Assembly: GCA_024278765.1 (NCBI GenBank) | Contig: JAJRSM010000044.1 | Span: forward strand, 5,972 to 69,971 | Length of the DNA: 64,000 bases | Reading direction: 5' to 3' | Source: Deltaproteobacteria bacterium | GTDB lineage: Bacteria > Desulfobacterota > GWC2-55-46 > DRQE01 | Part shown: positions 2,384 through 54,054 of the stretch, piece by piece | How the letters are laid out: each line of letters opens with the position of its first letter | How positions within the stretch are numbered: the first letter of the stretch is position 1 | Notes under the pieces: generated by a model | Databases searched by the model: none | What the model saw: the letters and a program-made list of their open reading frames with translations, nothing else | What the model was told of the DNA's origin: nothing | Translations under genes and position numbers: made by a program

Positions 2384-5969
<3,586 letters not shown>

Positions 5970-25306: not shown

Positions 25307-25476
25307 ATTTATTGTGGCTGATATTGTGTCTGTGATCATGAGTGTTTTAAGGGAATTATTGGTTGAAACCTAGCCTCTTAAATGTTGTATATTATAATAC
25401 TCCCCAAAATTTAGACAGCGGCATTTGTTGTATGATGGTCTGCCAAGATCAGTAAGGAGGCAGACGAGATGAAGAA

Positions 25477-25680
25477 GAAGCACGATGCGTCGTTCAAAGC
25501 TAAGGTTGCACTTGAGGCGATAAAGGGTGAGAAGACGCTGCTTAGTTATCAAGCCAGTACGGAGTCCACCCGAACCAGATAGGCCAGTGTAAAAAGCGTC
25601 TTCTGGAGGGTCTTACGAGGTTCTTTTCGGACAAGCGCAAGAAGTCCATATGGATATATAAACCTTTTATAAGAAACTGA
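25477..25680 (+). pseudogene. Frameshifted, truncated remnant of an IS3-family OrfA transposase (HTH_Tnp_1 type).
   Basis: Frame A reads MKKKHDASFKAKVALEAIKGEKTLL and then shifts; frame B continues QYGVHPNQIGQCKKRLLEGLTRFFSDKRKK, which matches the conserved FKAKVALEAL..GEKT...YGVHPNQI.QWKKQLLEG motif of IS3-family OrfA. Confidence 0.65.
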
Positions 25681-25685
25681 TTACT

Positions 25686-29930: not shown

Positions 29931-29931
29931 G

Positions 29932-31407: not shown

Positions 31408-33572
31408 AACAGATTATACAGAACTATAAGACAGGTGAGTTAAAGGTAGAGAACGTCCCAGTGCCGTATCTCAGGCGTGGCGGGGTCTTGGTTAATAACG
31501 AATATTCGCTGATAAGTTCAGGGACAGAGCGCGGCAAGATAGAGATGGCCAGGGCTAATCTTCTGCAGAAGGCACGGCAAAGGCCGGATCTCGTTAAGCA
31601 GGTAATGCATAACGTCAAGAGCGAAGGCCTTGTGCCTACGGCAAAGAAGGTCTTTACCCGTCTGAATACTCCGATAAGCCTTGGTTATTGCTCGGCTGGT
31701 ATTGTCTCTGTCGTAGACGACGCCACAAGTGGCTTTAAAGTTGGCGACCGCGTGGCATGTGTTGGAGAGGGCTTTGCCTGCCACGCCGAGGTCGTCTATA
31801 TTCCGGGCGGCCTACTGGTAAAGGTCCCTGACGAGCTTACGCTTGATAAGGCCTCTTTCGCTCCACTCGGAGCAATTGCCATGCAGGGGGTCAGGTTGGC
31901 TGAGGTCGGACTTGGCGATAAGGTCGTTGTTCTGGGGCTGGGCCTGATAGGTCAACTCACAGTACAGCTCCTAAAGGCATCGGGTTGCCACGTGATTGGC
32001 GTGGATATCGATGACGAGAAGGTCGCTATGGCTACCGAGTTCGGAACTGATATGGCACTGAACCTGAAAGAGGCGGATACGGAACTTGGCGTAGAGGGCT
32101 TTACCTTTTCACGCGGCGCGGATGTCGTTATCATCACGGCATCAGCATCGACGAGCCAGCCAATAGAGACCGCCGGTAAGCTTTGCAGGGAAAAAGGCAA
32201 GGTCGTTCTGGTGGGCGCTGTGCCAATAGAGTTGCCGAGAAAAGAATACTATGAAAAGGAGCTGGACTTTGTCGTCTCCCGCGCCTTTGGCCCGGGCTCT
32301 TATGACGAATCCTATATCGGCGGTACTGATTATCCTTACGGCTATGTGCGCTGGACGGTTCAGAGGAATATGGAAGAGGTAATGAACCTTATGGTTAGCG
32401 GTAAGGTTCTGGTAGATAAACTCATAAGTGGCAGGTTTAAAATAGACGATGCTGTTAAGGCCTACGAGCTTGTGAGAAAGCCAGAGGGTATTGTTATGGG
32501 CGTACTCTTTGAGTACGACGGTAAGCCAGCGGTGCCGGGCAGGATAATGATATCGCAGAAGGCAGGTAAAACGCGTAGTAATGCCCGCTCCGTCGGTTTT
32601 ATCGGGGCAGGGAACTTTGCGCAGAGCTATCTTCTGCCTGAGCTAAAGAAAGCAGGTGGCATGGAGTTGCGCGGGGTTGCGACCAACAGACCGATTAGCT
32701 CCGACAGTGTTAGCCGCAAGTTCGGCTTTAACTACGGGACCTGCAATCATAGCGAGATATTAAAAGACAATGATATAGATACTATATTTATAGCAACGCG
32801 CCATGACTTGCACGGCCCTCTGACGGCACAGGCCTTGCGTGCCGGGAAATCCGTCTTTGTAGAAAAACCGCTTGCCCTGAATCTGGACGAATTAACTGAG
32901 ATAACTCAGGCGTACGGCGCAGCCGATAGCCCCTACCTTATGGTAGGTTTTAACAGAAGGTTCTCGCCGCTATCGGTTAAGTTAAAGAAGCATTTTGAGA
33001 GTATAAAGACGGCCAAGGCAATCAACTTTCGCGTTAATGCAGGGCCTTTGCCGCCCGACCACTGGCTCTTGGATCCGGTAGAAGGAGGGGGACGTATAAT
33101 CGGCGAGGGGTGCCATTTTATAGATTATCTCCAGTTTGTGACAGGGGCCAGACCGGTAAGGGTATATGCTGTATCAATGGACGGAAAGACGCGTGAAGCA
33201 GCGCAGAACGTACAGATAACAATTGATTTCTCTGATGGCTCGGTCGGTAATATTGCCTATATAGCCGACGGAGATCCGTCTTTTTCCAGAGAATATCTAG
33301 AGGTCTTCGGTGGTGGTAGAGTTGCCGTGCTGGATGATTTTAAGAAACTGACCTTGAGTGCCAAGGGTAAAGAAAAGGTCCATACCCTGCGCGGTAAGGA
33401 TATGGGGTATGGTGGTGAGATAAGCGAGGTCATAAAGACATTGACAGGTGGCGGCCCGGCCCCTATATCCTTTGCAGATCTGGTTGCAACGACGCTTACG
33501 AGCTTTGCCGTCAATGAGTCTTTGGTAACCGCTGCACCCGTGACTATCGCATTGGAGGTCTCTGGTGAGTAG
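31404..33572 (+). CDS. Bi-domain oxidoreductase with an N-terminal zinc-type MDR alcohol dehydrogenase fused to a C-terminal Gfo/Idh/MocA dehydrogenase.
   Basis: The N-terminus has GDRVACVGEGFACHAEVV plus a GLGLIGQL Rossmann; the C-terminus has VGFIGAGNFA and FVEKPL. Confidence 0.75.
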   Translation: MKQIIQNYKTGELKVENVPVPYLRRGGVLVNNEYSLISSGTERGKIEMARANLLQKARQRPDLVKQVMHNVKSEGLVPTAKKVFTRLNTPISLGYCSAGIVSVVDDATSGFKVGDRVACVGEGFACHAEVVYIPGGLLVKVPDELTLDKASFAPLGAIAMQGVRLAEVGLGDKVVVLGLGLIGQLTVQLLKASGCHVIGVDIDDEKVAMATEFGTDMALNLKEADTELGVEGFTFSRGADVVIITASASTSQPIETAGKLCREKGKVVLVGAVPIELPRKEYYEKELDFVVSRAFGPGSYDESYIGGTDYPYGYVRWTVQRNMEEVMNLMVSGKVLVDKLISGRFKIDDAVKAYELVRKPEGIVMGVLFEYDGKPAVPGRIMISQKAGKTRSNARSVGFIGAGNFAQSYLLPELKKAGGMELRGVATNRPISSDSVSRKFGFNYGTCNHSEILKDNDIDTIFIATRHDLHGPLTAQALRAGKSVFVEKPLALNLDELTEITQAYGAADSPYLMVGFNRRFSPLSVKLKKHFESIKTAKAINFRVNAGPLPPDHWLLDPVEGGGRIIGEGCHFIDYLQFVTGARPVRVYAVSMDGKTREAAQNVQITIDFSDGSVGNIAYIADGDPSFSREYLEVFGGGRVAVLDDFKKLTLSAKGKEKVHTLRGKDMGYGGEISEVIKTLTGGGPAPISFADLVATTLTSFAVNESLVTAAPVTIALEVSGE

Positions 33573-36562: not shown

Positions 36563-37981
36563 GTGAAGGCAAGACATTTTTCACTGCGCCCGTTGGCGAT
36601 ATTTCTTGATATCATAACCATACTGCTGTCCTTTTACGTCTCTTTTATTCTGCGTGGTGTGCTTCTGCGTTTTTATCAGTTCGGCAATGTTACAGAGTTG
36701 CATGATTACGTCTACGTCTTGATAATTGTCCTTGCCGGTTCAATATGGCTTCTGACTATTTTTGGTGCTTACAAAAAACCTATGTTTGTCTCTCTATGGA
36801 AGGAGCTACAGATAGTTGTAAAGGTCGTAGTCCTGGGTTCGTTGATACTTTTTGCAGGTATTTTCTTTTTGCAGCTGGATGTATCGTTCCTACCAAGAAC
36901 CTTTATGCTGCTCTTTTTACTGGTCAACTTTTCTATCTTAATCTTTCAAAAGACGATTATGTATTCTCTTATGAGCAGAGAACGTATGAAGGGAGTCGGT
37001 CTTCAGAGTGCCATTGTAGTTGGCGACGGTGATGGGGTTGCGCGTTTCTTGCATACGTTAAAGGTTCATCCCGAGTATGGCTTGAAGGCAATCGGTGTTT
37101 TCTGTGATGACGAATCAACCGCCTCTACAGTTAAGGATTTAGCTACACTTGGCCCTGTAGAAGGGTTAGGAGACTTTCTTCACAAAAACCATGTTGACGA
37201 GGTTATTATTATACCTGAGAAAGACGTTAATATAGAGGAAATATTAGTGGTCTGTGAAGAAGAAGGTGTCAAGACAAGGATCGTGCCGGATCTTCTAAAC
37301 AGGCTTGATATTGATGTCGCGCTCGACAGACTTGGCGATATGATTGCTATTAATCTTTACGGTCATCATGAAAAAGAATGGCAGATATTCTTTAAGCGTG
37401 CTATGGATATTACCGTATCCGCAATAATGATCTTATTGCTTTCACCAATCTTAATAGCGATATCTATTGCTATTAAGATAAACTCTCCGGGGCCTGTCTT
37501 TTACCATTGGAGGGTCATGGGTTTTAATAAAAAGCCCTTTACAAGCTGGAAGTTCAGGACGATGATCGTTAATGCCGATGAGATGAAAAAAGAGCTTATC
37601 AAAGAAAATGAAATGAGCGGCCCTGTCTTTAAGATCAAGAACGACCCGAGGATCACCCCTATCGGGCGGGTTCTCAGGAGGTTCAGCATGGATGAACTAC
37701 CTCAGCTCTTCAGTGTCCTAAAAGGGGATATGAGCCTTGTCGGCCCAAGGCCTCCACTGGTATCAGAGGTGGAAAAATTCGAACGTTGGCATGGCAAGAA
37801 ACTTCGGATCAAACCTGGGATAACGTGCCTCTGGCAGGTAAGCGGACGAAATGCGATAAAAGATTTTGACGAGTGGGTACGCCTGGATGTAAAATATATT
37901 GAGAACTGGTCGCTCTGGCTGGATATTAAAATATTATTTAAGACAATACCAGCTGTCTTTTTGGAACAGGACATTAACTAA
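36563..37981 (+). CDS. Polyprenyl-phosphate hexose-1-phosphate transferase, a WbaP/PglC-family priming glycosyltransferase.
   Basis: TM helices, a CoA-binding-like domain and a C-terminal 'bacterial sugar transferase' domain (FKIKNDPRITPIGRVLRRFSMDELPQLFSVLKGDMSLVGPRP) are present. Confidence 0.88.
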   Translation: MKARHFSLRPLAIFLDIITILLSFYVSFILRGVLLRFYQFGNVTELHDYVYVLIIVLAGSIWLLTIFGAYKKPMFVSLWKELQIVVKVVVLGSLILFAGIFFLQLDVSFLPRTFMLLFLLVNFSILIFQKTIMYSLMSRERMKGVGLQSAIVVGDGDGVARFLHTLKVHPEYGLKAIGVFCDDESTASTVKDLATLGPVEGLGDFLHKNHVDEVIIIPEKDVNIEEILVVCEEEGVKTRIVPDLLNRLDIDVALDRLGDMIAINLYGHHEKEWQIFFKRAMDITVSAIMILLLSPILIAISIAIKINSPGPVFYHWRVMGFNKKPFTSWKFRTMIVNADEMKKELIKENEMSGPVFKIKNDPRITPIGRVLRRFSMDELPQLFSVLKGDMSLVGPRPPLVSEVEKFERWHGKKLRIKPGITCLWQVSGRNAIKDFDEWVRLDVKYIENWSLWLDIKILFKTIPAVFLEQDIN

Positions 37982-37982
37982 G

Positions 37983-38045
37983 ATGAAGCTACTCGTGACC
38001 GGCGGAGCCGGAAGAAGTGTTTGCTACAGGCAGGATATTAAATGA
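37983..38045 (+). other. Twenty-codon upstream ORF (MKLLVTGGAGRSVCYRQDIK) formed by a partial duplication of the 5' end of the downstream epimerase gene; its stop overlaps the real start (ATGA).
   Basis: Nucleotides 37983-38012 are about 85% identical to 38042-38071. Confidence 0.6.
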
Positions 38046-39175
38046 AGATACTTGTAACCGGCGGAGCCGGGTTTATTGGCTCTCATACTGTTGACGCACT
38101 TTTGCTTAAAGGGCATGAGGTGCGTATCCTCGATAGCTTTGAGAAACCAGTACATCTTAAGGGCAGGCCGAGCTATATACCAAAAGAGGTCGAGGTCATT
38201 GAGGGCGACGTGCGTGATAAGGCTGCGTGGGAAGAAGCCCTTGTTGGTATCGATGCAGTCTATCATTTTGCTGCTTATCAGGATTATCTGCCGGATTTTT
38301 CCAAGTTCTTTCATGTCAATAGCGTTGGGACTTCTTTGCTTTACGAGGTCGCTGTTGAACGTAAACTGCCGCTTCAGAAGGTAGTCGTAGCCTCTTCGCA
38401 GGCGGTATACGGCGAGGGCAGGCATAACTGCCCTGCCTGCAAGACGGCGTATTACCCTGATATCCGCAGTTCTGATGTCATGGATCGTGCGCAGTGGAAT
38501 CATAGGTGTCCTACCTGTAAAGGCCCTTTAGAGTTCAGTCAGACCGATGAGTCCCGTATAAATCCGCAGAACCAATACGCACTTAGTAAATATACGCAAG
38601 AACTTATAGCCATTAACTTTGGTCGTCGTTATAATATACCAACAGCTGCTATGCGCTACTCTATCGTACAGGGGCCGAGACAATCTTTTTATAATGCTTA
38701 TTCTGGGGCGTGTAGGATTTTCTGTCTGAGATATTTCTTTGATCGGTCTCCGGCGATATACGAGGACGGCAACCAAGTACGTGACTTTGTAAATATCAAG
38801 GATGTTGTAGCAGCCAATATTGCTGTTCTTGAAAGTGATAAGGCCGATTACGAGGTCTTTAATGTTGGCGGAGGCCATGCCTATACCGTCTTCGAGTTTG
38901 ACGCGACCGTCAGGAAGGTCTTTGGTAAAGAGGCCATGGCGCCGCGCATCCCAGGTGAATATAGGTTTGGCGATACTCGTCATATATTATCAGATGTGAG
39001 TAAACTTAAAGCCCTTGGCTGGAAGCCCGAATCTACGCCCGAGGATAGCGTAAGAGAATATATGGAGTGGTTAAAGAGTCAGGTCGATATCGAAGACGTC
39101 CTGGATTACGCAGAGCAGAAGATGAAGGATATGGATGTGGTTAGAAAGGCTGACCTAAAAGGAGATACCCTATGA
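38042..39175 (+). CDS. NAD-dependent epimerase/dehydratase (SDR) carrying an inserted CxxC...CxxC zinc-ribbon segment.
   Basis: MKILVTGGAGFIGSH is the SDR N-terminus; the insertion reads NCPACKTAYYPD...HRCPTCKG. Confidence 0.75.
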   Translation: MKILVTGGAGFIGSHTVDALLLKGHEVRILDSFEKPVHLKGRPSYIPKEVEVIEGDVRDKAAWEEALVGIDAVYHFAAYQDYLPDFSKFFHVNSVGTSLLYEVAVERKLPLQKVVVASSQAVYGEGRHNCPACKTAYYPDIRSSDVMDRAQWNHRCPTCKGPLEFSQTDESRINPQNQYALSKYTQELIAINFGRRYNIPTAAMRYSIVQGPRQSFYNAYSGACRIFCLRYFFDRSPAIYEDGNQVRDFVNIKDVVAANIAVLESDKADYEVFNVGGGHAYTVFEFDATVRKVFGKEAMAPRIPGEYRFGDTRHILSDVSKLKALGWKPESTPEDSVREYMEWLKSQVDIEDVLDYAEQKMKDMDVVRKADLKGDTL

Positions 39176-40161
39176 TAATCACCCAGACGCCTTTGCGGAT
39201 CAGTCTTTTTGGCGGAGGTACGGACTTTAAGGATTTCTACCAGAAAGACGGCGGAGCTGTCTTGAGTCTTGGTATTGATAAGTATATCTACGTAATAGTC
39301 AAAGAGCGTTTTGATGAAGATATCTATATAAATTATTCCAAAAAAGAAATTGTAAAGTGTGTTGACGATATCGAGCATGAGCTTGTAAAAGAGTCGATGC
39401 GAAAGACCGGTGTAAAGGCCGGTATAGAGATAACGACCTTGGCTGATATACCCAGCGAGGGTAGTGGGCTTGGCTCGTCATCAAGTGTTACCGTAGGGCT
39501 TTTAAATGCCCTCTATGCCTATCAGGGTGAGCAGGTAACGCTTGAGCAGCTGGCACGTGAGGCATGTGAGATAGAGATTGATATCCTAGGCAAGCCAATC
39601 GGCGTGCAGGATCAGTATATAGCCGCCTACGGAGGTTTGCGTTTTATCGAGTTTAGTAAAGATGGTAGTATTACCGTTGAGCGGATGCCGCTGAAGGAAG
39701 AAGAAAAGAGGCGGCTCGTATCAAACTTACTAATATTCTATACGGGTAAGACCCGCAGCTCTTCTAATGTATTGACTGAGCAGAAGGCGAATATAGGTAA
39801 GAGGCTGACAGAACTTGGCACGATAAAAGATCTTGCATATAGTGCAAAAGAGCAGATACTCGCAGGTGATATCGATAATGTCGGTGCTCTGATGCAGAAG
39901 GGTTGGGAGGCTAAAAAGAAGCTCGCCTCTAATGTGACGACCCCGGAGATAGACGAGCTATACGCTAAGGCAATCGTTGCCGGCGCGCTCGGTGGTAAGA
40001 TTTCAGGGGCAGGCTCTGGTGGTTTTTTGCTTCTGTATTGCCCACGTGAGGTGCAGAACTCAGTACGCGAGGCGATGAACGGCCATATGGAGTTGCCTTT
40101 CCTACTTAGCCGAGACGGCAGTAAGGTGATATTTAACAACAGAGGCTATGAGTGGAAATGA
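39172..40161 (+). CDS. GHMP-family sugar kinase (D-glycero-D-manno-heptose 7-phosphate kinase HddA-like).
   Basis: The GHMP motif PSEGSGLGSSSSVTVG is present, and the gene sits between an epimerase and nucleotidyltransferase/GmhA genes. Confidence 0.7.
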   Translation: MIITQTPLRISLFGGGTDFKDFYQKDGGAVLSLGIDKYIYVIVKERFDEDIYINYSKKEIVKCVDDIEHELVKESMRKTGVKAGIEITTLADIPSEGSGLGSSSSVTVGLLNALYAYQGEQVTLEQLAREACEIEIDILGKPIGVQDQYIAAYGGLRFIEFSKDGSITVERMPLKEEEKRRLVSNLLIFYTGKTRSSSNVLTEQKANIGKRLTELGTIKDLAYSAKEQILAGDIDNVGALMQKGWEAKKKLASNVTTPEIDELYAKAIVAGALGGKISGAGSGGFLLLYCPREVQNSVREAMNGHMELPFLLSRDGSKVIFNNRGYEWK

Positions 40162-40859
40162 AGGCCGTTCTGCTCGCCGCAGGGAAGGGGACAAGGCTGC
40201 GCCCATTGACCGATTCAGTGCCAAAGTGTCTGATCCCTATCGGCGGCGAGCCAATGCTCACCATATGGTTGCGTTTGCTGAAGAAACATGGTATAGAAGA
40301 AGTCCTTATTAATACGCATTATCACGCAGAGCGAGTAGATGATTTTCTGGCCAGTGATGATTCCGGGGTCAAGGTCAAGGCCGTATACGAAGAAGAGCTA
40401 CTTGGTAGCGCCGGTACGGTACTGGCAAATAGAGATTTTTTCAGAGATGAAAAAGATTTTTTTATTATCTATGCCGACAACCTGACCAATATGAATATTA
40501 CTAAGATGGCAAAATTTCACCGGTGCAATAACAAAAAAGGCCTTCTTACTATGGGGCTGCACAGGGCTACGAACCCGCAGGCCTGCGGCATAGCAGGCAC
40601 TGACAAGGACGGTCTGATAACGTCTTTTGTAGAGAAGCCGGAGCACCCTGAATCTAACCTTGCAAATGCCGGTGTATACGTCGCTGGCCAAGAGATCTTC
40701 GACTATATACCGCAGAGAAAAGGGGTTGTGGACCTTGGTTTTGATCTTCTGCCGATTTTGGTCAATAAGATGTATGGCTATGAAATAGAAGAATACCTTT
40801 TGGATATCGGTACGTTAGATAACTACGAACGCGCTAACAAAGAGTGGAGCAACGAATGA
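40152..40859 (+). CDS. Sugar-1-phosphate nucleotidyltransferase (HddC-like heptose-1-P guanylyltransferase candidate).
   Basis: MKAVLLAAGKGTRLRPLTDSVPKCLIPIGGEPML is the family's N-terminal motif. Confidence 0.75.
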   Translation: MEMKAVLLAAGKGTRLRPLTDSVPKCLIPIGGEPMLTIWLRLLKKHGIEEVLINTHYHAERVDDFLASDDSGVKVKAVYEEELLGSAGTVLANRDFFRDEKDFFIIYADNLTNMNITKMAKFHRCNNKKGLLTMGLHRATNPQACGIAGTDKDGLITSFVEKPEHPESNLANAGVYVAGQEIFDYIPQRKGVVDLGFDLLPILVNKMYGYEIEEYLLDIGTLDNYERANKEWSNE

Positions 40860-41449
40860 GTAAAGATTTTTTCGACCACTATATAGAAGAAGAACAGAGG
40901 CTGCTTGGCGAGATCTCGGAGGCGGAGTTTAATAAGGTGATAGAGCTCTTTCAGACTGCTTATGAAGATGGCAGGCAGGTCTTTGTCTTTGGCAATGGCG
41001 GCAGCGGCTCGACGGCCTCGCACTTTGCCTGCGATATCAATAAAGGGGTCTCCTACGGCCATGACAAACGCTTTAAGGTTATCTGCCTCAATGACAATAT
41101 AGCGACAATACTCGCCTATGCCAATGACACCTCGTATAATGATATTTTTGTTGAGCAGCTTAAGAACTTCATGCAGCCTGGAGATCTGGTCTTTGGAATA
41201 TCCGGCAGTGGAAACTCAGAGAATGTCCTGCGTGCTGTGGAGTATGGTAATGGTAACAGTGCGATAACATTAGGTTTTACAGGCTTTTCGGGTGGCAGGC
41301 TTGGTAAGGTTGCCGAATTATCTATAAATGTGGCCTCAGAAGATATGCAGAAGATCGAGGATATACACCTAATTATGACCCATATGATAATGCAGAGTTT
41401 CTGTAAGAAACTAGGCCTGCCTTGTAAAAAAGACGGTGAAAAGAGCTAA
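40844..41449 (+). CDS. gmhA: SIS-domain sedoheptulose-7-phosphate isomerase.
   Basis: VFVFGNGGSGSTASHFACD and a length of about 200 aa match GmhA. Confidence 0.85.
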   Translation: MEQRMSKDFFDHYIEEEQRLLGEISEAEFNKVIELFQTAYEDGRQVFVFGNGGSGSTASHFACDINKGVSYGHDKRFKVICLNDNIATILAYANDTSYNDIFVEQLKNFMQPGDLVFGISGSGNSENVLRAVEYGNGNSAITLGFTGFSGGRLGKVAELSINVASEDMQKIEDIHLIMTHMIMQSFCKKLGLPCKKDGEKS

Positions 41450-41452
41450 GTT

Positions 41453-42058
41453 GTGAATGAATGCACTATATATTTGATCCGTCACGGCGAGATACTTTCT
41501 AATAAAGACGACGTCTATGCCGGCTGGAGTGGTGAAGAACTTACTGAGCAGGGGCGAGCCTCTGCCCAGAACCTCGGTAAAGAGGCCAAAGACTGGAGTA
41601 TTGAGGCTATCTATACCAGCCCTATCAGAAGGGCCGTTCAGACGGCAGAAATAATCAATAGCTATCTCGGTAAAGAACTCTTTACCGAGGATGGTTTGAA
41701 AGAGATAAAGATGGGGCCTTGGGAAGGGCTGCGTATCGGTGATGTTGAGGAGCGTTTCCCTGAAGATTTCAAAACATGGCAAACAAGGCCAGGCGATTTA
41801 AGGGTAGAGGGCAGAGAGACACTGGAAGAGTTGCAAAGAAGAACTGTAACTGCGGTGATGAAGATATTTAAAGCCCACAGCGGTGCTGTCCTTGCCGTAA
41901 CCCATGTAGCTATAATTCGTGTACTTTTTCTTTACTATAACTACAGGCCTTTAAACGATTATAAGAAGATAGATGTCCCAAACCTCTCGGTCTTTAAACT
42001 CACCTTATCATCCGGATCCGGCGGGTCCGGGAAGAGCGCGAGTTTTACTCCTTTATAA
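41453..42058 (+). CDS. Histidine phosphatase (phosphoglycerate mutase-like) family protein.
   Basis: IYLIRHGE is the catalytic His motif. Confidence 0.75.
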   Translation: MNECTIYLIRHGEILSNKDDVYAGWSGEELTEQGRASAQNLGKEAKDWSIEAIYTSPIRRAVQTAEIINSYLGKELFTEDGLKEIKMGPWEGLRIGDVEERFPEDFKTWQTRPGDLRVEGRETLEELQRRTVTAVMKIFKAHSGAVLAVTHVAIIRVLFLYYNYRPLNDYKKIDVPNLSVFKLTLSSGSGGSGKSASFTPL

Positions 42059-42373
42059 CTGTAAAAATAATTATTCCCAATTGATGAACATACCTATTAA
42101 TTTATTGCTGTAATTGCCTGATATAATTAGTATAAATTGTCTTTTATATTTAACTTCTGCATTCAGCCATGTCGCATAATGAATATTATGTCAAGTACGA
42201 TGAAGGGGCTCATCATGATGGATCTTGGTTTCTATCCCTTCGGTATTGTCTTAGGCTGGTATCACAATAAAATCTAGAAAAAACTATCTGCTAAATAATT
42301 AAAATATTCTGCCCTGCTTATATCAGATCCAGGCCGATAATTTAAGAGGCCAGTCTTAAAATTAAGATTTGAT

Positions 42374-43285
42374 TTATCCCCTTGGATGCGCCTTCTTGTG
42401 CAGTTGTTTGAGCCTCTCTGCCCTGACGTGTGTATAGATCTGGGTCGTTGAGATATCACTATGACCAAGCATTTCCTGGACAGATCTGAGGTCTGCGCCA
42501 CGCTCCAGCAGATGTGTAGCAAATGAATGGCGTAGTATATGCGGCTTAACTCTGTTTTTTTCTATTCCGGCTACCAGGGCCATCTTTTTGATAATAAGCC
42601 AGTAGTTCTGGCGAGTCATGGCAGAGCCTAGTCTGGTAATAAAGAGGTACTTTGATGTGCCGCGCCCTTTGAGTTTACCCTCTCTTTCGCCCTCTATATA
42701 GGCCTGCAAGCACTTCATGGCCACCTCTCCTATAGGTACAAGTCTTTCCTTTTCACCCTTGCCTATGGCCCTTATATAGCCTTTCTGGAGGTTTATGTCA
42801 TTTAGCCTGAGCCCTGTAAGCTCGGAGACTCGAAGCCCGGTGGCATAAAGTAGCTCGATCATGGCTTTATCTCTAAGCGAGTTCTTTTCATCTTTGCTGC
42901 TTGCCCTAAGAAGCTCATCTACCTCTGCTATAGAAAGGTACTGAGGAAGACGTCTTGGCTCTTTAGGCAGGTCGATCAAAGAGCAAGGTGAAGACTCTAA
43001 ATAACCCTGTTTAATCAGGTACTTATATAAACCTCTCAGGGATATCATAGCCCTAGAGCAACTCCTGCTCTTGAGCCCTCGTAGCCGCATGCTAAGGATA
43101 TATTCCCTCAGGTCAGTCGGTTTTATCAGTAATAGATCTAGATTATTCTCGGTAAGGTATGCGCTAAAGGCACGGAGGTCTCTTCTGTAGGCAGATGCAG
43201 TGTTCTTTAAAAGTCCTTTTTCAGTAATAATAACGGTGATATAGGATTCGATTAGCTGAAGGTTATCACCTGTTTGTAGAGCCAT
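42374..43285 (-). CDS. xerD: Site-specific tyrosine recombinase XerD.
   Basis: The C-terminal HILRHSFATHLLERGADLRSVQEMLGHSDISTTQIYTHV motif is XerD-like. Confidence 0.85.
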   Translation of the reverse strand: MALQTGDNLQLIESYITVIITEKGLLKNTASAYRRDLRAFSAYLTENNLDLLLIKPTDLREYILSMRLRGLKSRSCSRAMISLRGLYKYLIKQGYLESSPCSLIDLPKEPRRLPQYLSIAEVDELLRASSKDEKNSLRDKAMIELLYATGLRVSELTGLRLNDINLQKGYIRAIGKGEKERLVPIGEVAMKCLQAYIEGEREGKLKGRGTSKYLFITRLGSAMTRQNYWLIIKKMALVAGIEKNRVKPHILRHSFATHLLERGADLRSVQEMLGHSDISTTQIYTHVRAERLKQLHKKAHPRG

Positions 43286-43300
43286 ATTGCCCTCCCCCGA

Positions 43301-45964
43301 TTAATTAAGAACATCCATTATGGTCTTCTTAATATTATCTACCTTGGTCTCGTCGTTGATCTTCTGGTTAAAGATATCCCTGATATAGAAGATATCAGAG
43401 GCTGTATCCCCTTTTGTCGAGACCTTGGCGATGTGGATTATAACCCCCATTGATGTTAGCGCGGAGCTTATCATATATAGCAGGCCGAGCCTGTCTTCGG
43501 TATGAATCTCAAGGACGGTAAAGATATCCGAGACGTCATTATCTACCTCGATACGGACAGGAACAGCAGGCTTTATCTTCTTATCCAAAATTGACGGGCG
43601 TATATTCTCTATCAGGCTCTCTACCTTGATCTTACCGCTTATCAGGTCTTTGAGGTTCTCTCCAATCCTGTCAATCTTTATATCATCGGTTAAGAGCTTT
43701 CCGTAGACGGTATTGACCTGCAAGAGATCAAGGGCCACGCCGTTTCTAAGGGTATTGATCTGTGCGCCGAGGATGTTAATAGAATTAGCCATCATAACGC
43801 CGGTTATCATGGCAAAGAGTCCGGAGGTATCCAGGGTCGTTATGACAAGCTCGGTGTACTCACGCTCTTCTATCTGGCGAACTTTTACGATCAAGGAGCT
43901 TTTATCTAGCTCTTTTATATATTCTATATGGTTCAGTACCGCCTCGGGGCTATTGGAGAAGGCATACCTTGGTGGTAGCTGCTTCATATGCTGCTCGATC
44001 TCAGCGGCCGTTATGTTGGTGTCTTCATCAAGGCGGGCGCGTGCCAGAATACGGCTCTTGAGCTTATCGAGCCGTACCGACATATGAGTAGGCTCAAATG
44101 CACCTTTCTCAAGGACTGCGCGAGCTTTAAAATAGAGTTCTTGGAAGAGTGTCCCCTTCCACTCACTCCATACCTCGGGCCCGACGGCCTTTACATCGGC
44201 AAAGGTCAAGAGATATAAAAGATCCAGACGTTCATCATCACCTACTGTTTTGGCAAAGTCTATTATGAGCTTTTCGTCATGCAGATCGCGATATTGCGCT
44301 GTATTGGCGAGGATCAGGTGCTCACGTACGAGAAAGGTAACGAGCTCAATACTTTCTTTTTTAAAGCCTATACGAGAGCATATTTCAGGGACCATTGCGG
44401 CACCTTTTAGGGCATGGCCGCTGCCGTGTGCCTTACCGATATCATGCAGAAGTATAGCGATAGAGAGCTCTGCGCGTTGCTCGACGTCTTCTAGCAAGGC
44501 TGTCAGCAGTTTGTGGCGGTTGCTGTACTCGTCCCAGAGTTTTTCAAGCTCTCGGATGGCAAATATTGAGTGCGCATCAACGGTATAGATATGATATAGG
44601 TCATGCTGTACTTTGCATCTGACCTCGGCAAACTCGGGGATATAGGTATCAAGGACCTTCAGGCGATGCATAATGTCGAGGGTCTCAAAGAGGTTTTCTC
44701 CGATAAGGATACGACGAAAAGACTTTCCAGCGTCCTTGTCGGTAGAAAGCTCAAGGCCGGGCTTGATAATGGCCTCCAGTATCAGGTCTTGCGTCTTTCT
44801 ATCTATTTTTGCACCGTAGTCCTGTGCGTATTCAAAGACGTGAATAAGATTTGCTGGACTGCACAGAAAGACGTCCTCGACACTAGCCGACATAACATGG
44901 TTAGTTATTACGAAGTCCGTGCTTGGTCTGAGTTCTTCGATGGGTTCAGAGGATTTAATCAAGGCTATTTTGGGCTCAAGGCAGCGCGAGATTATAAGCT
45001 CTGAGATAGCACTTATATTGGTGGCGTGCAGGTAGTAATTGCGCATAAAAGTCTCGACTGCCAGCTCGCGCTCAGCATCAAAGTGCCCTCTTATCTGCGC
45101 CATCCTTTCTTGTACGTCAAAGGTTAGCCTGTCTTTCTTTCGCCCGCTCTGAAAATGTATGCCGTTCCTGACCCAGTGAAGATAGTCAACAGAGTTTTCC
45201 AGAGATTCTTTCTCCGCGCCGCTCATAACGCCTTCTTCAAGTGCGCTGAAGTAACCACGCTTGGTGGCCTTTGCTATCCAGAGTGCAGCATGTAAGTCGC
45301 GTAGCCCCCCCTGGCTTTCTTTTACATTTGGTTCAAGTACGTATATGGAATCGCCGAATTTTTTATGACGCGCGGCTTTTTCTTGCAGTTTTGACTCTAT
45401 AAAATCACCAGAGCCACGCTTAGAGAATATCACGGCCTCGTACTTGGTCAGAAGCTTATCATAGAGCTTTTTATCACCAAAGAGAAAGCGCGAGTCTATC
45501 ATCGCAGTCATTGTCTTGGTATCTTCTATCGTAATATTAAGGGCGTCTTTGATGCTCCTTATGCTAAAGCCCATATCAAGGCCCGCGTCACTTAAGACGT
45601 AGAGGATAGATTCCGCGATCTCTTCAATTTCTTTAGTCCTTTTTTTATTATAGAGCAACATCAGATCAATATCCGAGTGGATATTAAGCTCCCCTCTTCC
45701 GTAACCGCCAAGGGCTACAAAGGCAACATTGTTGTTTTCAGGGAGCTTTGCCGTGACCTTCTTAAAGAGGGTTAGCAGGAGTTCATCCATTATAGCGGTA
45801 TGCTCAAGCGTGATTGATAGCCCCTGGAGGCTACTCAGGTGCTTCTCTCGCAGCTCCAAGCGTACGGTGCTGAGATACTGCTTCACCTTTAAAGATAGTG
45901 CGGTGTTGCCTTCTGTTCCGAGTATTGTCAGGATGGTCTGTACTCCCGGCGTGGTTGTTGACAT
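43301..45964 (-). CDS. glnD: [Protein-PII] uridylyltransferase / uridylyl-removing enzyme.
   Basis: A nucleotidyltransferase domain, HD domain and two ACT domains across 887 aa match GlnD. Confidence 0.85.
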   Translation of the reverse strand: MSTTTPGVQTILTILGTEGNTALSLKVKQYLSTVRLELREKHLSSLQGLSITLEHTAIMDELLLTLFKKVTAKLPENNNVAFVALGGYGRGELNIHSDIDLMLLYNKKRTKEIEEIAESILYVLSDAGLDMGFSIRSIKDALNITIEDTKTMTAMIDSRFLFGDKKLYDKLLTKYEAVIFSKRGSGDFIESKLQEKAARHKKFGDSIYVLEPNVKESQGGLRDLHAALWIAKATKRGYFSALEEGVMSGAEKESLENSVDYLHWVRNGIHFQSGRKKDRLTFDVQERMAQIRGHFDAERELAVETFMRNYYLHATNISAISELIISRCLEPKIALIKSSEPIEELRPSTDFVITNHVMSASVEDVFLCSPANLIHVFEYAQDYGAKIDRKTQDLILEAIIKPGLELSTDKDAGKSFRRILIGENLFETLDIMHRLKVLDTYIPEFAEVRCKVQHDLYHIYTVDAHSIFAIRELEKLWDEYSNRHKLLTALLEDVEQRAELSIAILLHDIGKAHGSGHALKGAAMVPEICSRIGFKKESIELVTFLVREHLILANTAQYRDLHDEKLIIDFAKTVGDDERLDLLYLLTFADVKAVGPEVWSEWKGTLFQELYFKARAVLEKGAFEPTHMSVRLDKLKSRILARARLDEDTNITAAEIEQHMKQLPPRYAFSNSPEAVLNHIEYIKELDKSSLIVKVRQIEEREYTELVITTLDTSGLFAMITGVMMANSINILGAQINTLRNGVALDLLQVNTVYGKLLTDDIKIDRIGENLKDLISGKIKVESLIENIRPSILDKKIKPAVPVRIEVDNDVSDIFTVLEIHTEDRLGLLYMISSALTSMGVIIHIAKVSTKGDTASDIFYIRDIFNQKINDETKVDNIKKTIMDVLN

Positions 45965-45980
45965 AATATTATCAGTATCC

Positions 45981-47216
45981 TTATCCGGCGCCTTTGCCGT
46001 CCATGTAATTTATAATGCCTTTGGTAATGCCCTTTGTGATCTCTCTGAGGTATTTATCGGTCTTCAGTCTCTTCTCGTCCTTTGGGTTACTTATAAAAGA
46101 TACCTCGACCAAGACGCTTGGCATATTGGCATTTACCAGTACATAAAAGAGCGCGCCCTTTACGCCGTTGCTTTTGACACCCTTGTATTTTCTCTGTAAC
46201 CCCTTTGATAAAGTCTGCTGAATATTGGTTGCAAGCCTGATGCTCTCCTGCTGGTTGCCGGTACTCTCAAGATCTCTGAGGATATAGCCCAAAACATCAT
46301 TCATCTCGGCTGGCGTTGTCTTATTCTCACGCGCCGCAACCCTAATGGCGTCTTTATCCTGTGTATACCTGAGGTAATAGGTCTCAACCCCAGTTGCAGC
46401 TCTTCTGGGACTTGCATTAACATGGATCGAGACAAAGAGGTCGGCCTCCTTGGAGTTTGCTATGGCCGTGCGTTCATCAAGAGGCAGGTATTTATCCCTT
46501 GTTCTTGTGAGTATTATCTTGGGCTTTTTGCCGTATTTTTTCTGGAGTTCTTTTGCCAGATCCTTCTTCAGCATCTTTGCGATCTTTAAGGTAACGATCT
46601 TTTCCTGAAGCTTTCTCTTACCTATTGCTCCGGGGTCTTTACCGCCGTGCCCCGGATCAATGACGATTGTACGTATTCCGTTTGGTTTTTTTATAACGGG
46701 CTTTTCCGGCTTTGGCGTCTTTACCTTCTCTACCCCTGATACTACTGGTGGCTCGGTTTTTGCCGCAGGGGCCTGACGCGCACCTTTACCAAAGATATCA
46801 ATGACTATCCGGTTGGGCCCTGACAAAGGAAAGACCTTATAATCCTTTAACGACTCAATATCAAGGACCACACGTACGGTCTTGTTATCGAACTGCCCGG
46901 CCCTTGCGACCTTTAACAGACCGTCATTGATCGGAATCATCCTCTGGATATTTTTACCCAGGCGAGCCCCTTTTATATCGACATAGAAGCGACGGGGTTT
47001 CTTTATCGAAGGATCTTTCCGAAGCAGATGCGATTTAAAGTCGGCCTTTTTATCCAGTGTTATAACGACACGGGTATAGTTCTTTGAAGAGAAATGCCTG
47101 ATCTCTTTGACAGTTACCTTTGCCGCATCCGCACAGGCAGCGGCGAAAAGAACCGCGAAGAAGACAAAGACGGACAATAAGATAATGGCTATTCGTATAT
47201 TATATCTGGGTCTCAA
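45981..47216 (-). CDS. N-acetylmuramoyl-L-alanine amidase with an N-terminal AMIN domain (AmiC-like).
   Basis: A signal peptide and AMIN domain precede the amidase_3 motif IVIDPGHGGKDPGAIG. Confidence 0.85.
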   Translation of the reverse strand: MRPRYNIRIAIILLSVFVFFAVLFAAACADAAKVTVKEIRHFSSKNYTRVVITLDKKADFKSHLLRKDPSIKKPRRFYVDIKGARLGKNIQRMIPINDGLLKVARAGQFDNKTVRVVLDIESLKDYKVFPLSGPNRIVIDIFGKGARQAPAAKTEPPVVSGVEKVKTPKPEKPVIKKPNGIRTIVIDPGHGGKDPGAIGKRKLQEKIVTLKIAKMLKKDLAKELQKKYGKKPKIILTRTRDKYLPLDERTAIANSKEADLFVSIHVNASPRRAATGVETYYLRYTQDKDAIRVAARENKTTPAEMNDVLGYILRDLESTGNQQESIRLATNIQQTLSKGLQRKYKGVKSNGVKGALFYVLVNANMPSVLVEVSFISNPKDEKRLKTDKYLREITKGITKGIINYMDGKGAG

Positions 47217-47217
47217 T

Positions 47218-49929
47218 TTAGTCCTTTACTTTTATCATTCTGAGCTGGGTGAGTTGGGTCTTGAGCTGGCTCAGCAGGTTCAGTCCCTCAAGCGGGGTAA
47301 GCTGGTCTATATCTGTTGATAATAGTCTTTCTATTACCTCACCTTCTTTTGGCTTTGGTTCTGGCTCTGGGACTAAGGCTACGCCGTCAGCCTGACCCAT
47401 CTTCTGGTCTCTGGAGTTTGCTCTGGACGGGTAAATACCGGGCAAAGGCGGAGTCTGAATTACCTGTTTTTTCCTGGTCCCTGCGATCCTTGGCAGTCCC
47501 GCTTCGTTAAGCTCATCGCTTTCTAGGTTTGCAAGGACCTCTTTTGCTCGTGCGATGACCTCTGGCGGTAGTCCTGCCAGCCGCCCCACCTGAATCCCGT
47601 AGCTGGAGCTTGCTCCGCCAGGGACGATTTTCCTCAGAAAGATAATCCTGTCTTCAAATTCTTTAACAGTCATATTATAGTTTTTGACGCGCTCCTTTGT
47701 CAAGGAAAGCTCTGTAAGCTCGTGATAATGCGTGGCAAATAAGGCCTTTGTAGCTCCAATCGGTCTGTCGTGTAGATACTCGACCACGGCCCATGCAATG
47801 CTTAGGCCATCAAAGGTCGATGTGCCTCGCCCTATCTCATCGAGGATTATAAGGCTTTTTTCAGTAGCATTATTAAGGATATTGGCCGTCTCGGTCATCT
47901 CGACCATAAAGGTACTCTGGCCTCGTGAGATATCATCGGAAGCACCGACGCGTGTAAATATCCTATCGACCACACCGATTGTAGCCTTTGTAGCCGGGAC
48001 AAAGCAGCCTGCCTGCGCCATAAGAACAATAAGGGCAACTTGTCTGATATAGGTCGATTTACCAGCCATATTAGGGCCGGTTAAGAGGATTATCTGGCTC
48101 GTCTTACTACCTAAAAATAGGTCATTTGGTGTAAAGGGCTCTCTGCTGGCCTTCTCAATTACAGGGTGGCGGCCTTCTTTGATCTCTATCAGGTCGTTGT
48201 CGTTTATAACCGGCCTTACGTAGTCCATCTCTACAGATACGAGCGCGAATGATATAAGGGCGTCAAGCGTTGCGATCTGTGCCGCTGATTGCTGGATCCT
48301 TCCAATATGGACTCGTACTTTATTAAGGATCTCGCCGTAAAGGGTAAGTTCCAGCGTCTTTGCTTTGTCTTCCGCCGATAAGAGGCGCACCTCCCATTCC
48401 TTAAGCTCCGGGGTTATAAAGCGTTCGGCATTAACGAGCGTCTGTTTTTTGATGTATTCTTCGGGGACATTAGCACTCTTGGCACGGCTGACCTCGATAT
48501 AATAACCAAAGACCTTGTTGTACCTGACCTTCAGGGTATGGATACCGGTGCGTTTACGTTCTTTTAGCTCAAGCTCTTTTAGCCAGTCTTTACCGAGGCT
48601 TGAGGTATCGCGCAGTTCATCCAGATCTGCATTGAAACCCTCTTTTATAAAGCCGCCTTCCCTTGTTATGTGAGGCGCGTCCTCTCTGATAGATTCTTCA
48701 ATTAGCTCTGTTACTTCCCTTACCGGATCAAGCCTCTCTGACAAGTCTTTAATAAGGGTTGAGGTAAAGGTCGCAAGCGTCTTTTTAAGCGGACTAATCT
48801 GAAGCAGCGAGTCCTTGAGACTAAAGAGTTCTCTAGGGCCTACGACCCCGATTGAGACCCGCCCTGTTATCCTCTCGATATCCGAGATCTTTTTTAGGCT
48901 CGTTGTAAGTGAGCTTACGAGCAGGCGGTCTTTTGTAAGCTCCTCTACGCCGTCGTGGCGGGCGATGATCCGAGTCTTATCCATAAGAGGTCTGATCAGC
49001 CAGTTCTTCAGACGCCGCGCCCCCATCGAGCAAGATGTCCTATCCAGATAATCCAGCAGGCTTCCCTTGCGTTGCATATCCCGGGTGTTTTCGATTATCT
49101 CCAGGTTTCTGCGCGTATGATAGTCAAGGGTCAGGTACTTATCACCGTAATAAGGCCTGCACTGCTTTACATGGGTAAGCTCGGCTCGCTGCGTGTCTTT
49201 GACGTAATGCAGTAGTGCGCCAGCGGCCCTGATACCCTCGGTATGCCTTGAAAGACCAAAGCCGTCGAGGGTCGCCAGATCAAAGTGTTGCAAAAGCCGC
49301 TCTGTACAGATCTTCAGCTTTAGGTCGTAGTCCGTAATGATAGAGATGTTTTTAATAGGTAGGGGTGAGCTGCCATCAGTCGTAGCCGAAAGCTCTTCCA
49401 TGCACTGCTGGCTGGTAACCAACTCGCTCGGAGCTAGACGTGCGAGTTCTTCAATCAGGTTCGGAAGGCCACCTGTCTCGGTCACCATGAACTCGCCGGT
49501 GGTGATATCCATATAGGCCAGACCGCCACGCCCCTGATTAAGAGATAGTGCTGCTATATAGTTGTTGGCCTTGGAGTCCAGCAGTTCAGCGTCAAGGGCC
49601 GTGCCCGGTGTGATTATACTGGTTACGGCCCTGCGAACAACTCCTTTTGCAGTAGCCGCGTCCTCCATCTGATCGCAGATAGCGACTTTGTAGCCTTCTT
49701 TTACGAGCTTTCCGCAGTAGCCCTTTGCGGCATGAAACGGCACACCGCACATAGGGATCTTCTTTTCTTTATCGCGCGAGGTAAGGGCTATACCCAGCAC
49801 CTCGGCCGCTATCTTTGCGTCCTCAAAGAACATCTCATAGAAGTCGCCCATCCTGAAAAAAAGCAGGGCATCCGGGTGCTCTGCCTTGATATCAAGGAAC
49901 TGCCTCATAGCCGGTGTTATCTTCTCCAT
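47218..49929 (-). CDS. mutS: DNA mismatch repair protein MutS; the start is assigned to MEKITPAMRQF.
   Basis: The N-terminal TPMMRQ-like motif, the Walker A GPNMAGKST and a length of about 900 aa match MutS. Confidence 0.92.
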   Translation of the reverse strand: MEKITPAMRQFLDIKAEHPDALLFFRMGDFYEMFFEDAKIAAEVLGIALTSRDKEKKIPMCGVPFHAAKGYCGKLVKEGYKVAICDQMEDAATAKGVVRRAVTSIITPGTALDAELLDSKANNYIAALSLNQGRGGLAYMDITTGEFMVTETGGLPNLIEELARLAPSELVTSQQCMEELSATTDGSSPLPIKNISIITDYDLKLKICTERLLQHFDLATLDGFGLSRHTEGIRAAGALLHYVKDTQRAELTHVKQCRPYYGDKYLTLDYHTRRNLEIIENTRDMQRKGSLLDYLDRTSCSMGARRLKNWLIRPLMDKTRIIARHDGVEELTKDRLLVSSLTTSLKKISDIERITGRVSIGVVGPRELFSLKDSLLQISPLKKTLATFTSTLIKDLSERLDPVREVTELIEESIREDAPHITREGGFIKEGFNADLDELRDTSSLGKDWLKELELKERKRTGIHTLKVRYNKVFGYYIEVSRAKSANVPEEYIKKQTLVNAERFITPELKEWEVRLLSAEDKAKTLELTLYGEILNKVRVHIGRIQQSAAQIATLDALISFALVSVEMDYVRPVINDNDLIEIKEGRHPVIEKASREPFTPNDLFLGSKTSQIILLTGPNMAGKSTYIRQVALIVLMAQAGCFVPATKATIGVVDRIFTRVGASDDISRGQSTFMVEMTETANILNNATEKSLIILDEIGRGTSTFDGLSIAWAVVEYLHDRPIGATKALFATHYHELTELSLTKERVKNYNMTVKEFEDRIIFLRKIVPGGASSSYGIQVGRLAGLPPEVIARAKEVLANLESDELNEAGLPRIAGTRKKQVIQTPPLPGIYPSRANSRDQKMGQADGVALVPEPEPKPKEGEVIERLLSTDIDQLTPLEGLNLLSQLKTQLTQLRMIKVKD

Positions 49930-49934
49930 TGTTG

Positions 49935-53438: not shown

Positions 53439-54054
53439 TTATCCTCATTTTTGCATAGTTGTTTTTGTCAAGGCCGGCACCAAGTGCAACGTTTCTGGAA
53501 AACTCTTCTGTTAAAAACTCTGTTGGCGAATGCAGGTCAGAGTTAAGAACCATCTCTACATTAAAGCGGCATGCCATCGCACCTACATGACCATTAGTAA
53601 GACTGTGCCCCTTACGCGCACTTATCTCAAAGTATACACCTTTTTCTGCCGCAAGCCTGCATTCGGCCTCATTAATAAGACCTGGATGAGCCAGTATATC
53701 AACACCTGCATCGATTGCGGCCAGATTTGTCCCACCAGGCACTGGCTCTACGATTGACTCACCGTGGCATATAACAAGGTCTGCACCAAGCCTGCGAGCA
53801 AAGATAGTCATCTCCCCGATATCAGCAGGCCTCAGATGGGTTAACTCAACGCCTGCCAATACCTTTACGCCTTCTGCGGCGGTGAGGTTACCAGTAAACT
53901 TTAAGAGGTTTTCTATCACGGCCTCTATATTAGAGCGGTCAACATGGTCGGTGATCGCCAGTGCCTTGTACCCGGCTCGTCCAGCCCTTGATACCAACTC
54001 TGCTGGAACAAGCTCGCCGTCAGAATGTATTGTATGCATATGCAGATCTATCAT
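53404..54054 (-). CDS. PHP-domain phosphoesterase.
   Basis: MIDLHMHTIHSDG is the PHP N-terminal His motif. Confidence 0.75.
   Translation of the reverse strand: MIDLHMHTIHSDGELVPAELVSRAGRAGYKALAITDHVDRSNIEAVIENLLKFTGNLTAAEGVKVLAGVELTHLRPADIGEMTIFARRLGADLVICHGESIVEPVPGGTNLAAIDAGVDILAHPGLINEAECRLAAEKGVYFEISARKGHSLTNGHVGAMACRFNVEMVLNSDLHSPTEFLTEEFSRNVALGAGLDKNNYAKMRINAEDIIKKHIL

Follow-up and report, generated by a model that had tools for sequence, protein, structure and literature searches.

We analyzed a 64,000-nucleotide stretch of a Deltaproteobacteria bacterium genome (assembly GCA_024278765.1, contig JAJRSM010000044.1, forward-strand positions 5,972 to 69,971; hereafter the window), in which five genes at positions 38042-42058 encode a short-chain dehydrogenase/reductase (SDR), a GHMP kinase, a nucleotidyltransferase (NTase), a SIS-family sugar phosphate isomerase, and a histidine phosphatase. 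Working from comparative genomics only, we consider it likely that this operon makes a GDP-activated heptose, with the histidine phosphatase in the place of GmhB. The observations behind this proposal concern gene content, sequence motifs, linkage of the phosphatase to the other four genes, and the mutual exclusivity of the two phosphatase types in related loci. Nucleotide-activated heptoses build capsules, O-antigens, and S-layer glycans, and heptose bisphosphate and ADP-heptose are innate-immune signals; to our knowledge, the 7-phosphatase step of heptose synthesis has so far been assigned only to the HAD-family enzyme GmhB. The use of a histidine phosphatase instead looks like a previously undescribed enzyme-family swap in a known pathway, and no paper tying histidine phosphatases to heptose synthesis was found in the full-text literature, outside which many subscription papers lie.

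A five-gene module closed by a histidine phosphatase had been described in an earlier prediction made from the window sequence; all five open reading frames (ORFs) are present on the + strand at 38042-42058, and the Pfam families agree with that description. The first gene (38042-39175) encodes an extended, GalE-like, NAD-dependent NDP-sugar epimerase of 377 amino acids (aa; Pfam Epimerase, E 2e-42) and overlaps by 4 nt (39172-39175) the gene for an HddA-like GHMP sugar-1-kinase (39172-40161, 329 aa; GHMP_kinases_N and GHMP_kinases_C). The kinase gene in turn overlaps by 10 nt (40152-40161) that of a short sugar-1-phosphate NTase without a C-terminal LbH domain (40152-40859, 235 aa; NTP_transferase, E 4e-44), which overlaps by 16 nt (40844-40859) the gene for a GmhA-like SIS ketose/aldose phosphate isomerase (40844-41449, 201 aa; SIS_2/SIS). 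A gap of 3 nt separates the SIS stop (41449) from the start (41453) of the last gene, which encodes a histidine phosphatase of branch 1 (41453-42058, 201 aa; His_Phos_1, E 1.7e-49). The overlaps and the 3-nt gap are the arrangement of a single operon with translational coupling. Translation of the NTase and SIS genes probably begins at the internal ATG codons at 40158 and 40856, because the homologues in a related locus (L001) are 233 and 197 aa long. A promoter and terminator scan around the operon returned nothing above shuffle expectation.

The window phosphatase is predicted to be a heptose-1,7-bisphosphate 7-phosphatase and a functional analogue of GmhB, an activity that we infer only from its complementary distribution with true GmhB in orthologous modules. 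The kinase and SDR families are very large (thousands of proteins from uncultured bacterial phyla are more than 60% identical, and one kinase homologue is labelled archaeal), and a kinase-seeded scan of metagenome contigs, combined with the contexts of kinase homologues without the histidine phosphatase, gave 83 distinct loci. A phosphatase was assigned to a locus when it lay within 7 kb of the kinase, and a locus was counted as having neither type only if its contig extended 5 kb or more to each side. GmhB-type HAD phosphatases were found in 20 loci (12 of them with the insertion-type SDR described below) and histidine phosphatases in 2; no locus had both, 8 had neither, and the other 53 could not be assigned because their contigs were too short. 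In these orthologous modules the two phosphatase types exclude each other, and mutual exclusion within a shared module is the classic signature of non-orthologous gene displacement.

The GmhB-type modules encode a kinase 55-68% identical to that of the window and the same insertion-type SDR. In the first example, L038/L039, this SDR, a kinase 68% identical to that of the window, and an SIS protein are accompanied by a HAD protein matching Escherichia coli GmhB at E 1e-30. NCBIfam names all three tested HADs GmhB, one of them above the NF006506 cut-off (188.5 vs 178) and one just below it (174). GmhB is fused to an SIS isomerase in L091 (403 aa, about 5800-7015, at the end of ORF 3935-7015, + strand) and to a GT2 glycosyltransferase in L050 (410 aa, 5894-7129, + strand). 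This pattern of exchange between GmhB and the histidine phosphatase also provides the strongest argument at hand that the kinase forms a bisphosphate needing a GmhB-like step. In a neighbor-joining tree of the kinases, the two phosphatase types are interleaved and the window clade is sister to the GmhB-linked L038, suggesting multiple phosphatase swaps; this reading is only tentative, because the tree is rough and carries no support values.

A search for contigs encoding the window phosphatase itself returned no record. To follow its relatives, we collected 36 loci from its homologues and from a scan of genome contigs with their alignment, and scored all ORFs against the five window proteins, counting linkage when at least one of the four partner genes adjoined the phosphatase. 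One or more module genes, usually several, lie directly beside the phosphatase in 25 of 27 loci (the window and 26 fetched loci, phosphatase scoring at least 140 bits). The linked modules represent at least seven phyla, and the hosts of the loci above this score include Thermodesulfobacteriota/Deltaproteobacteria, Nitrospirota, Aminicenantes/Acidobacteriota, Phycisphaerales, Deferribacteres, Terriglobales, and others; Eisenbacteria are represented by L026, which is not one of the 27 because its homologue scores 123 bits, but which likewise lies within a module. Gene order is shuffled, with the phosphatase first, last, or internal (mid-module in L014, L024, L033, L043, and L047). The two exceptions to linkage are short contigs. 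In L022 the phosphatase gene lies in a Wzy/flippase glycan locus, and L008, from “Candidatus Aminicenans sakinawicola,” is the one clear exception: its 181-bit homologue (3818-4438) is surrounded by a DUF4143 gene, small unknown ORFs, and a beta-barrel porin gene, and the 3.8 kb upstream and 2 kb downstream of it contain no module gene. Seven lower-scoring His_Phos_1 relatives (under 125 bits) had no module. Close and specific linkage to kinase, SDR, NTase, and SIS genes characterizes the phosphatase clade in a wide range of phyla.

The claim that the histidine phosphatase is the sole phosphatase of the module also held, in that no GmhB homologue was detected in the module or anywhere in the 64-kb window by tblastn or by profile search. 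With E. coli GmhB as query (identical in sequence to PDB 2gmw), tblastn gave no match in the window or in L001-L005, and phmmer none in L001-L036; a profile built from the GmhB proteins collected in this analysis gave no match in the window and the 36 phosphatase-fetched loci (best E = 0.018). An LPS-type (lipopolysaccharide, beta-anomer) gmhB elsewhere in the genome could coexist with the module, and finding one would for this reason not be decisive against replacement. Two other window genes were considered as the real phosphatase and rejected. The HAD gene at 8837-9505 belongs to HAD-IA, is located 30 kb upstream next to a NeuB-like gene, and shows no similarity to GmhB; the PHP protein encoded at 53404-54054 is not GmhB-like and sits among housekeeping genes on the other strand.

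The window phosphatase is a clear member of its superfamily, matching Pfam PF00300 at 168.6 bits (cut-off 21.7) over residues 6-188 of 201. Its catalytic core, R10-H11-G12, R60, E84, and H151, is invariant in 22 homologues and common to 78 outgroup members. The protein opens directly at the RHG strand without a signal peptide, and should therefore be cytoplasmic. Among NCBIfam models, the highest score is to CobC (TIGR03162, 123.7 bits vs a cut-off of 162.9), followed at 103.2 bits by PspA (NF045917, cut-off 350); PhoE-like and GpmB models also match, and no equivalog cut-off is passed. The AlphaFold model (pLDDT 96.1) has the phosphoglycerate-mutase-like alpha/beta fold, with Foldseek TM-scores of 0.88 to PspA and PhoE; the closest solved folds are Hydrogenobacter PspA, PhoE, CobC, the riboflavin-pathway histidine-family phosphatase (9mmh), fructose-2,6-bisphosphatase, and Rv2419c. 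The clade is small, with 28 representative clusters at E ≤ 1e-30 compared with 28,814 superfamily hits. When 120 close homologues were compared with 78 other small His_Phos_1 proteins, six positions proved to be conserved in the close homologues only: S16, A23, E28, Q63, R121, and V152. R121 is present in 99% of the close homologues and in 13% of the outside proteins, where the residue is mostly Gly, and Arg121 could be a ligand of the second phosphate.

The remaining enzymes of the module resemble a GmhA/HddA/HddC-type set, as the original prediction had proposed, insofar as the specific models that fit the kinase and the isomerase best are HddA and gmhA and HddC is among the matches of the NTase; the set is not canonical, however, all of these matches being below their cut-offs. 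The kinase scores 166.4 bits against HddA (cut-off 600), and its closest PDB matches are the heptokinases 3k85, 4usk/4usm (WcbL), and 4n3o (E 1e-38 to 4e-43), with galactokinase and fucokinase also among the matches. Kinases of the HddA family form the alpha-1-phosphate, and the window enzyme is predicted to be an anomeric kinase of this type, converting heptose 7-phosphate at O1 to the alpha-1,7-bisphosphate. HddA/WcbL-type kinases take a 7-phosphate substrate, and the paper on WcbL gives R13 and D163 as its catalytic residues and describes complexes with mannose and AMP-PNP only (PMC4691232). By motif position, without alignment to WcbL, the R9 and D147 invariant in the window kinase family would correspond to these two residues.

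The NTase scores 91.7 bits against HddC (NF049965, cut-off 300) and higher, 144.6 bits, against a mannose-1-phosphate guanylyltransferase model; its PDB matches are GMPPs and HddC (5xhw/6jq8). In HddC, Glu80 of the motif EXEPLGTGGA reads guanine (PMC6981941). The window motif E80-E-E-L-L-G-S-A-G fits this guanine-binding motif, and the window protein is, like HddC, short and single-domain. The Glu is kept in 16 of 17 NTases of phosphatase-linked loci and starts every captured motif in the kinase-seeded loci. Given the match of the E80 motif to HddC, the NTase is predicted to be a guanylyltransferase, with GDP as the likely nucleotide. Together, the cross-phylum linkage, the GmhB in orthologous modules, the intact catalytic residues, and the Glu80 motif of the NTase favor the non-orthologous replacement of GmhB that had originally been suggested.

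The SIS protein matches only GmhA and DiaA in the PDB and scores 107.2 bits against NCBIfam gmhA (TIGR00441, cut-off 209.45). We compared the module SIS proteins of the window and L001-L033 with GmhA sequences from solved structures, taking the catalytic and metal residues of E. coli GmhA to be H61, E65, Q172, and H180. The module proteins keep the phosphate loop GISGSGNS and both catalytic/metal His residues, and share the motifs HFACD, K[IV]ED[IV]H, and GISGSGNS. They appear to form a distinct GmhA-like subfamily for which isomerase chemistry is plausible.

The SDR has the invariant GxxGxxG, Ser119, and Tyr179-x3-Lys183 of its family, and its best PDB matches by both sequence and fold are UDP-hexose 4-epimerases; its Ser/Tyr/Lys triad is of the GalE type, with “SSQAVYG” and not the “TDE” motif of dehydratases. 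The SDR gene accompanies that of the kinase in most related loci, and the enzyme is predicted to be a 4-epimerase acting on the NDP-heptose of the module. Pfam Epimerase is matched in two stretches, which indicates an insertion, and an inserted Cys4 zinc ribbon had indeed been predicted: a zinc-ribbon-like segment of ~42 aa (residues ~127-168; 38420-38545, + strand) carries C130-P-A-C133 and C156-P-T-C159 between the catalytic Ser119 and Tyr179. Among module SDRs from other phyla the second CPxC knuckle hardly varies; the first is either CPxC or C-x3-H, and the homologue in L033 has no Cys4 site. The Cys4 insertion is a family-wide trait, also present in GmhB-linked modules, and not peculiar to this locus. 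In the AlphaFold model of the SDR (mean pLDDT 88.8) the insertion forms short beta-strands with block-mean pLDDT of 79-93. A fold search with this model found ordinary GalE-type epimerases only, at TM ~0.7 over the query, and identified no solved structure with the same insertion; this TM-score fits an insertion that solved epimerases do not cover.

JGI names homologues of the SDR “dTDP-L-rhamnose 4-epimerase,” and we liken the SDR to WbiB of Burkholderia thailandensis and to Tle on the basis of this label and the published description of Tle, not by alignment. In Tle of Mycobacterium abscessus the Ser/Tyr pair is S121/Y181 and residues 128-165 form an extra element; the published description mentions neither zinc nor cysteines (PMC11549994). 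The window SDR has the same Ser-to-Tyr spacing (S119/Y179) and its insertion (127-168) at the same position; its context is a GDP-heptose-type module and not rml genes.

From these observations we infer the substrates, step order, regiochemistry, and nucleotide of the proposed pathway. The SIS enzyme would convert sedoheptulose 7-phosphate to an aldoheptose 7-phosphate, whose anomeric oxygen the HddA-like GHMP kinase would then phosphorylate to give the alpha-1,7-bisphosphate. The histidine phosphatase would strip the 7-phosphate, forming a phospho-His11 intermediate and using Glu84 as the acid, and so perform the job of the HAD-IIIA enzyme GmhB in the classical pathway. The short Glu80-type NTase would couple the resulting heptose 1-phosphate to GMP, and the insertion-bearing SDR would finally epimerize the GDP-heptose, most likely at C4. 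A bolder version of this scheme, which we regard as possible but doubtful, is that the module represents a very widespread uncharacterized pathway, leading for example to a 4-epimer (D-glycero-D-talo) or to the product of an altered isomerase, in which GmhB and the histidine phosphatase have been exchanged repeatedly and Arg121 reads the anomeric phosphate. The altered stereochemistry of the isomerase would in that case be set by the Asp/Glu-type SIS active site.

Several observations weigh against the GDP-heptose assignment and the GmhB replacement. The kinase, NTase, and SIS protein lie far under their NCBIfam equivalog cut-offs (166/600, 92/300, and 107/209, respectively), so that with the phosphatase all four enzymes fall short. 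In the SIS proteins, the equivalent of E. coli GmhA E65 is Asp in every module, and the equivalents of Q172 and T120 are, in most, Glu and Gly; the metal and the base may not work as they do in canonical GmhA, and the E65D and Q172E changes leave the exact sugar uncertain, such that the product may not be D-glycero-D-manno-heptose. The 8 kinase-seeded orthologous modules with no phosphatase of either kind within 10 kb imply that a distal phosphatase can serve, and one could exist in this genome too. The two samples were seeded differently, one from the phosphatase and the other from the kinase, and consist mostly of short metagenome contigs, and the view of the window genome spans 64 kb. The scores under the cut-offs and the SIS substitutions also favor a rival reading of the sugar: the variant SIS could act on another ketose phosphate or produce another epimer, leading to another GDP-sugar, with the phosphatase still removing a distal phosphate. 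The best NTase model, a mannose-1-phosphate guanylyltransferase rather than HddC, and the resemblance of the linked SDR to the manno/talo 4-epimerases WbiB and Tle fit such a product. The nearest characterized relatives of the kinase and SIS protein, however, are exclusively heptose enzymes, and the HAD partners in sister modules fit GmhB models best. We consider a different sugar unlikely, yet it is the only rival of any real weight, and under it the phosphatase could equally be an analogue of GmhB.

The order of steps is a separate matter, as sequence cannot fix it. The phosphatase could act on heptose 7-phosphate before the kinase, as might be expected from galactokinase and fucokinase, GHMP anomeric kinases among the kinase matches that act on free sugars, or it could act on GDP-heptose 7-phosphate after nucleotidyl transfer, much as CobC can act at the last step of cobalamin synthesis, in keeping with CobC (124 bits) as its top NCBIfam match. 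The complementary distribution with GmhB, whose characterized substrate is the 1,7-bisphosphate, points instead to the same step, and the closest characterized kinases, HddA and WcbL, use the 7-phosphate (PMC4691232); a different order is improbable on these grounds. We give very little credence to the notion that a housekeeping phosphatase of the CobC, PspA, or PhoE type merely happens to lie at the end of the operon. It is true that alpha-ribazole phosphatase, phosphoserine phosphatase PspA, and PhoE are the top models and that the gene is the last one, beside a strand switch, but the protein is under every equivalog cut-off, no serine genes lie nearby and no cobalamin genes occur among the window ORFs scanned (150 aa or longer), the association with the module is retained from phylum to phylum although gene order is shuffled, with the phosphatase sometimes internal, and the clade is small, its sampled members being module-bound. 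Equally hard to credit is a phosphomutase in the manner of the cofactor-dependent phosphoglycerate mutases (dPGMs), moving phosphate between heptose O7 and O1 without hydrolysis. Fold and catalytic residues are common to those mutases, and the kinase could supply the bisphosphate cofactor; against this, its size of 201 aa and its nearest structures (PhoE, PspA, and CobC) are those of the phosphatase-type members, mutases align with lower TM-scores and root mean square deviations of ~4-6 Å, a hydrolase, GmhB, takes its place in sister modules and so suggests hydrolysis, and a stoichiometric ATP-dependent kinase would be redundant. A GDP-heptose pathway with the histidine phosphatase removing the 7-phosphate from the bisphosphate is the reading that we retain.

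The operon forms the 3' end of a ~40-kb glycan-synthesis locus on the + strand. Its sugar genes include GDP-mannose dehydratase/fucose-synthase-like, NeuB-like, CDP-sugar, and UDP-GlcNAc 2-epimerase genes, and it further encodes B12-radical-SAM enzymes, glycosyltransferases, Wzy, a flippase, WecG, and a Bac_transf priming transferase. At 7321-9505 (+ strand), the NeuB-like gene, which encodes a synthase with a C-terminal cupin fusion (515 aa), overlaps the HAD-IA hydrolase gene rejected above (8837-9505); the pair looks like a separate nonulosonic/ulosonic-acid branch of the locus. At 29896-33572 (+ strand), a gene for a B12-binding radical-SAM enzyme (503 aa) precedes one for a 722-aa fusion of a zinc alcohol dehydrogenase-like protein with a GFO/IDH/MocA oxidoreductase, and in L002 (1-5052) three B12-radical-SAM genes adjoin a phosphatase-type module; a sugar C-methylation or unusual tailoring step is possible for these genes. 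The stretch at 22000-26000 within the locus is low in GC (36-38% vs ~46% overall) and holds a radical-SAM gene, a 200-aa ORF without a Pfam family (23197-23799), and a flippase-like gene, a pattern typical of a horizontally exchanged, serotype-specific core.

Just downstream of the operon, the intergenic region 42058-42374 contains a dif-like site, ATGTCGCATAATGAATATTATGTCAAGT, at 42169-42196 (+ strand). Its 24-nt core has 3 mismatches to what we take to be the E. coli dif sequence, and none of 100 shuffles matched. The site coincides with a flip of GC skew from + to − and a switch of gene orientation from all + to all −, and it adjoins a XerC/D-type recombinase gene (42374-43285, − strand); the region is probably the replication terminus. 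The junction in which the glycan locus and heptose module are followed by convergent genes for Xer, GlnD, an amidase (AMIN and Amidase_3), and MutS (36563-50007 of the window) is kept in L001 and L003, and its conservation in these Thermodesulfobacteriota-like contigs places the module at a stable chromosomal position beside the putative terminus. Elsewhere in the window, three large ORFs (59400-62111, − strand, 903 aa; 55622-56650, − strand, 342 aa; 9533-11209, + strand, 558 aa) have no Pfam match at E ≤ 1e-6, and a gene at 62159-63451 (− strand) encodes an ATP-citrate-lyase-type subunit (Citrate_bind and ATP-grasp_2), which suggests an autotroph using the reverse tricarboxylic acid cycle, fitting the hydrothermal Thermodesulfobacteriota-like relatives.

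If the proposal is correct, a second enzyme family would be available for the heptose 7-phosphatase step, and annotation would improve for many environmental genomes in which such genes are generically labelled phosphoglycerate mutase, CobC, or PhoE. The analysis also draws attention to a large, conserved, and unstudied module of insertion-type SDR, kinase, variant GmhA, and NTase. In E. coli and Klebsiella, some heptose is still supplied in gmhB mutants by an “uncharacterized enzyme” (PMC9302095). Histidine phosphatases would be a candidate enzyme class for this redundancy. Displacements of this kind have precedents in other pathways, making the case instructive rather than revolutionary.

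Compared with the classical GmhA/HddA/GmhB/HddC heptose pathway, the window module has the same four steps clustered in a surface-glycan locus and followed by SDR tailoring. It differs in that the phosphatase belongs to the histidine phosphatase superfamily and not to HAD-IIIA, in the Asp/Glu substitutions of the isomerase at E65 and Q172, in the scores of kinase, NTase, and isomerase under the equivalog thresholds, and in having a WbiB/Tle-like insertion SDR as a constant partner. The predicted reaction and place in the pathway are those of GmhB (PDB 2gmw and 3l8e), which fills the equivalent slot in the 20 loci above. The two enzymes are otherwise unrelated: GmhB has a Rossmannoid HAD fold, an Asp nucleophile, the DxDxT motif, and Mg2+, whereas the window phosphatase, with its phosphoglycerate-mutase-like fold, relies on a His nucleophile and needs no metal.

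Among histidine phosphatases, the window protein resembles PspA of Hydrogenobacter thermophilus (4ij5), Rv2419c (4pz9), and the riboflavin-pathway enzyme (9mmh) in being a small single-domain protein of ~200 aa. We take all three (Rv2419c being a glucosyl-3-phosphoglycerate phosphatase) to be histidine phosphatases in roles held by HAD enzymes elsewhere, and in this respect the proposed swap has precedent; they nevertheless act on other substrates, are 20-25% identical to the window phosphatase, and none is linked to sugar-nucleotide synthesis. PhoE of Geobacillus stearothermophilus (1h2e/1ebb) and CobC are the closest sequence relatives with a structure or model and have an identical catalytic core, but PhoE is of broad specificity and CobC belongs to the cobalamin pathway, whereas the window phosphatase carries the clade-specific residues S16, A23, E28, Q63, R121, and V152. 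The fructose-2,6-bisphosphatase domain of PFKFB, among both the sequence and the fold matches, is likewise a histidine phosphatase acting on a sugar bisphosphate, from which it takes a single phosphate; it is, however, a eukaryotic regulatory enzyme, fused to a kinase, and removes the anomeric (C2) phosphate, whereas the window phosphatase is predicted to remove the distal one.

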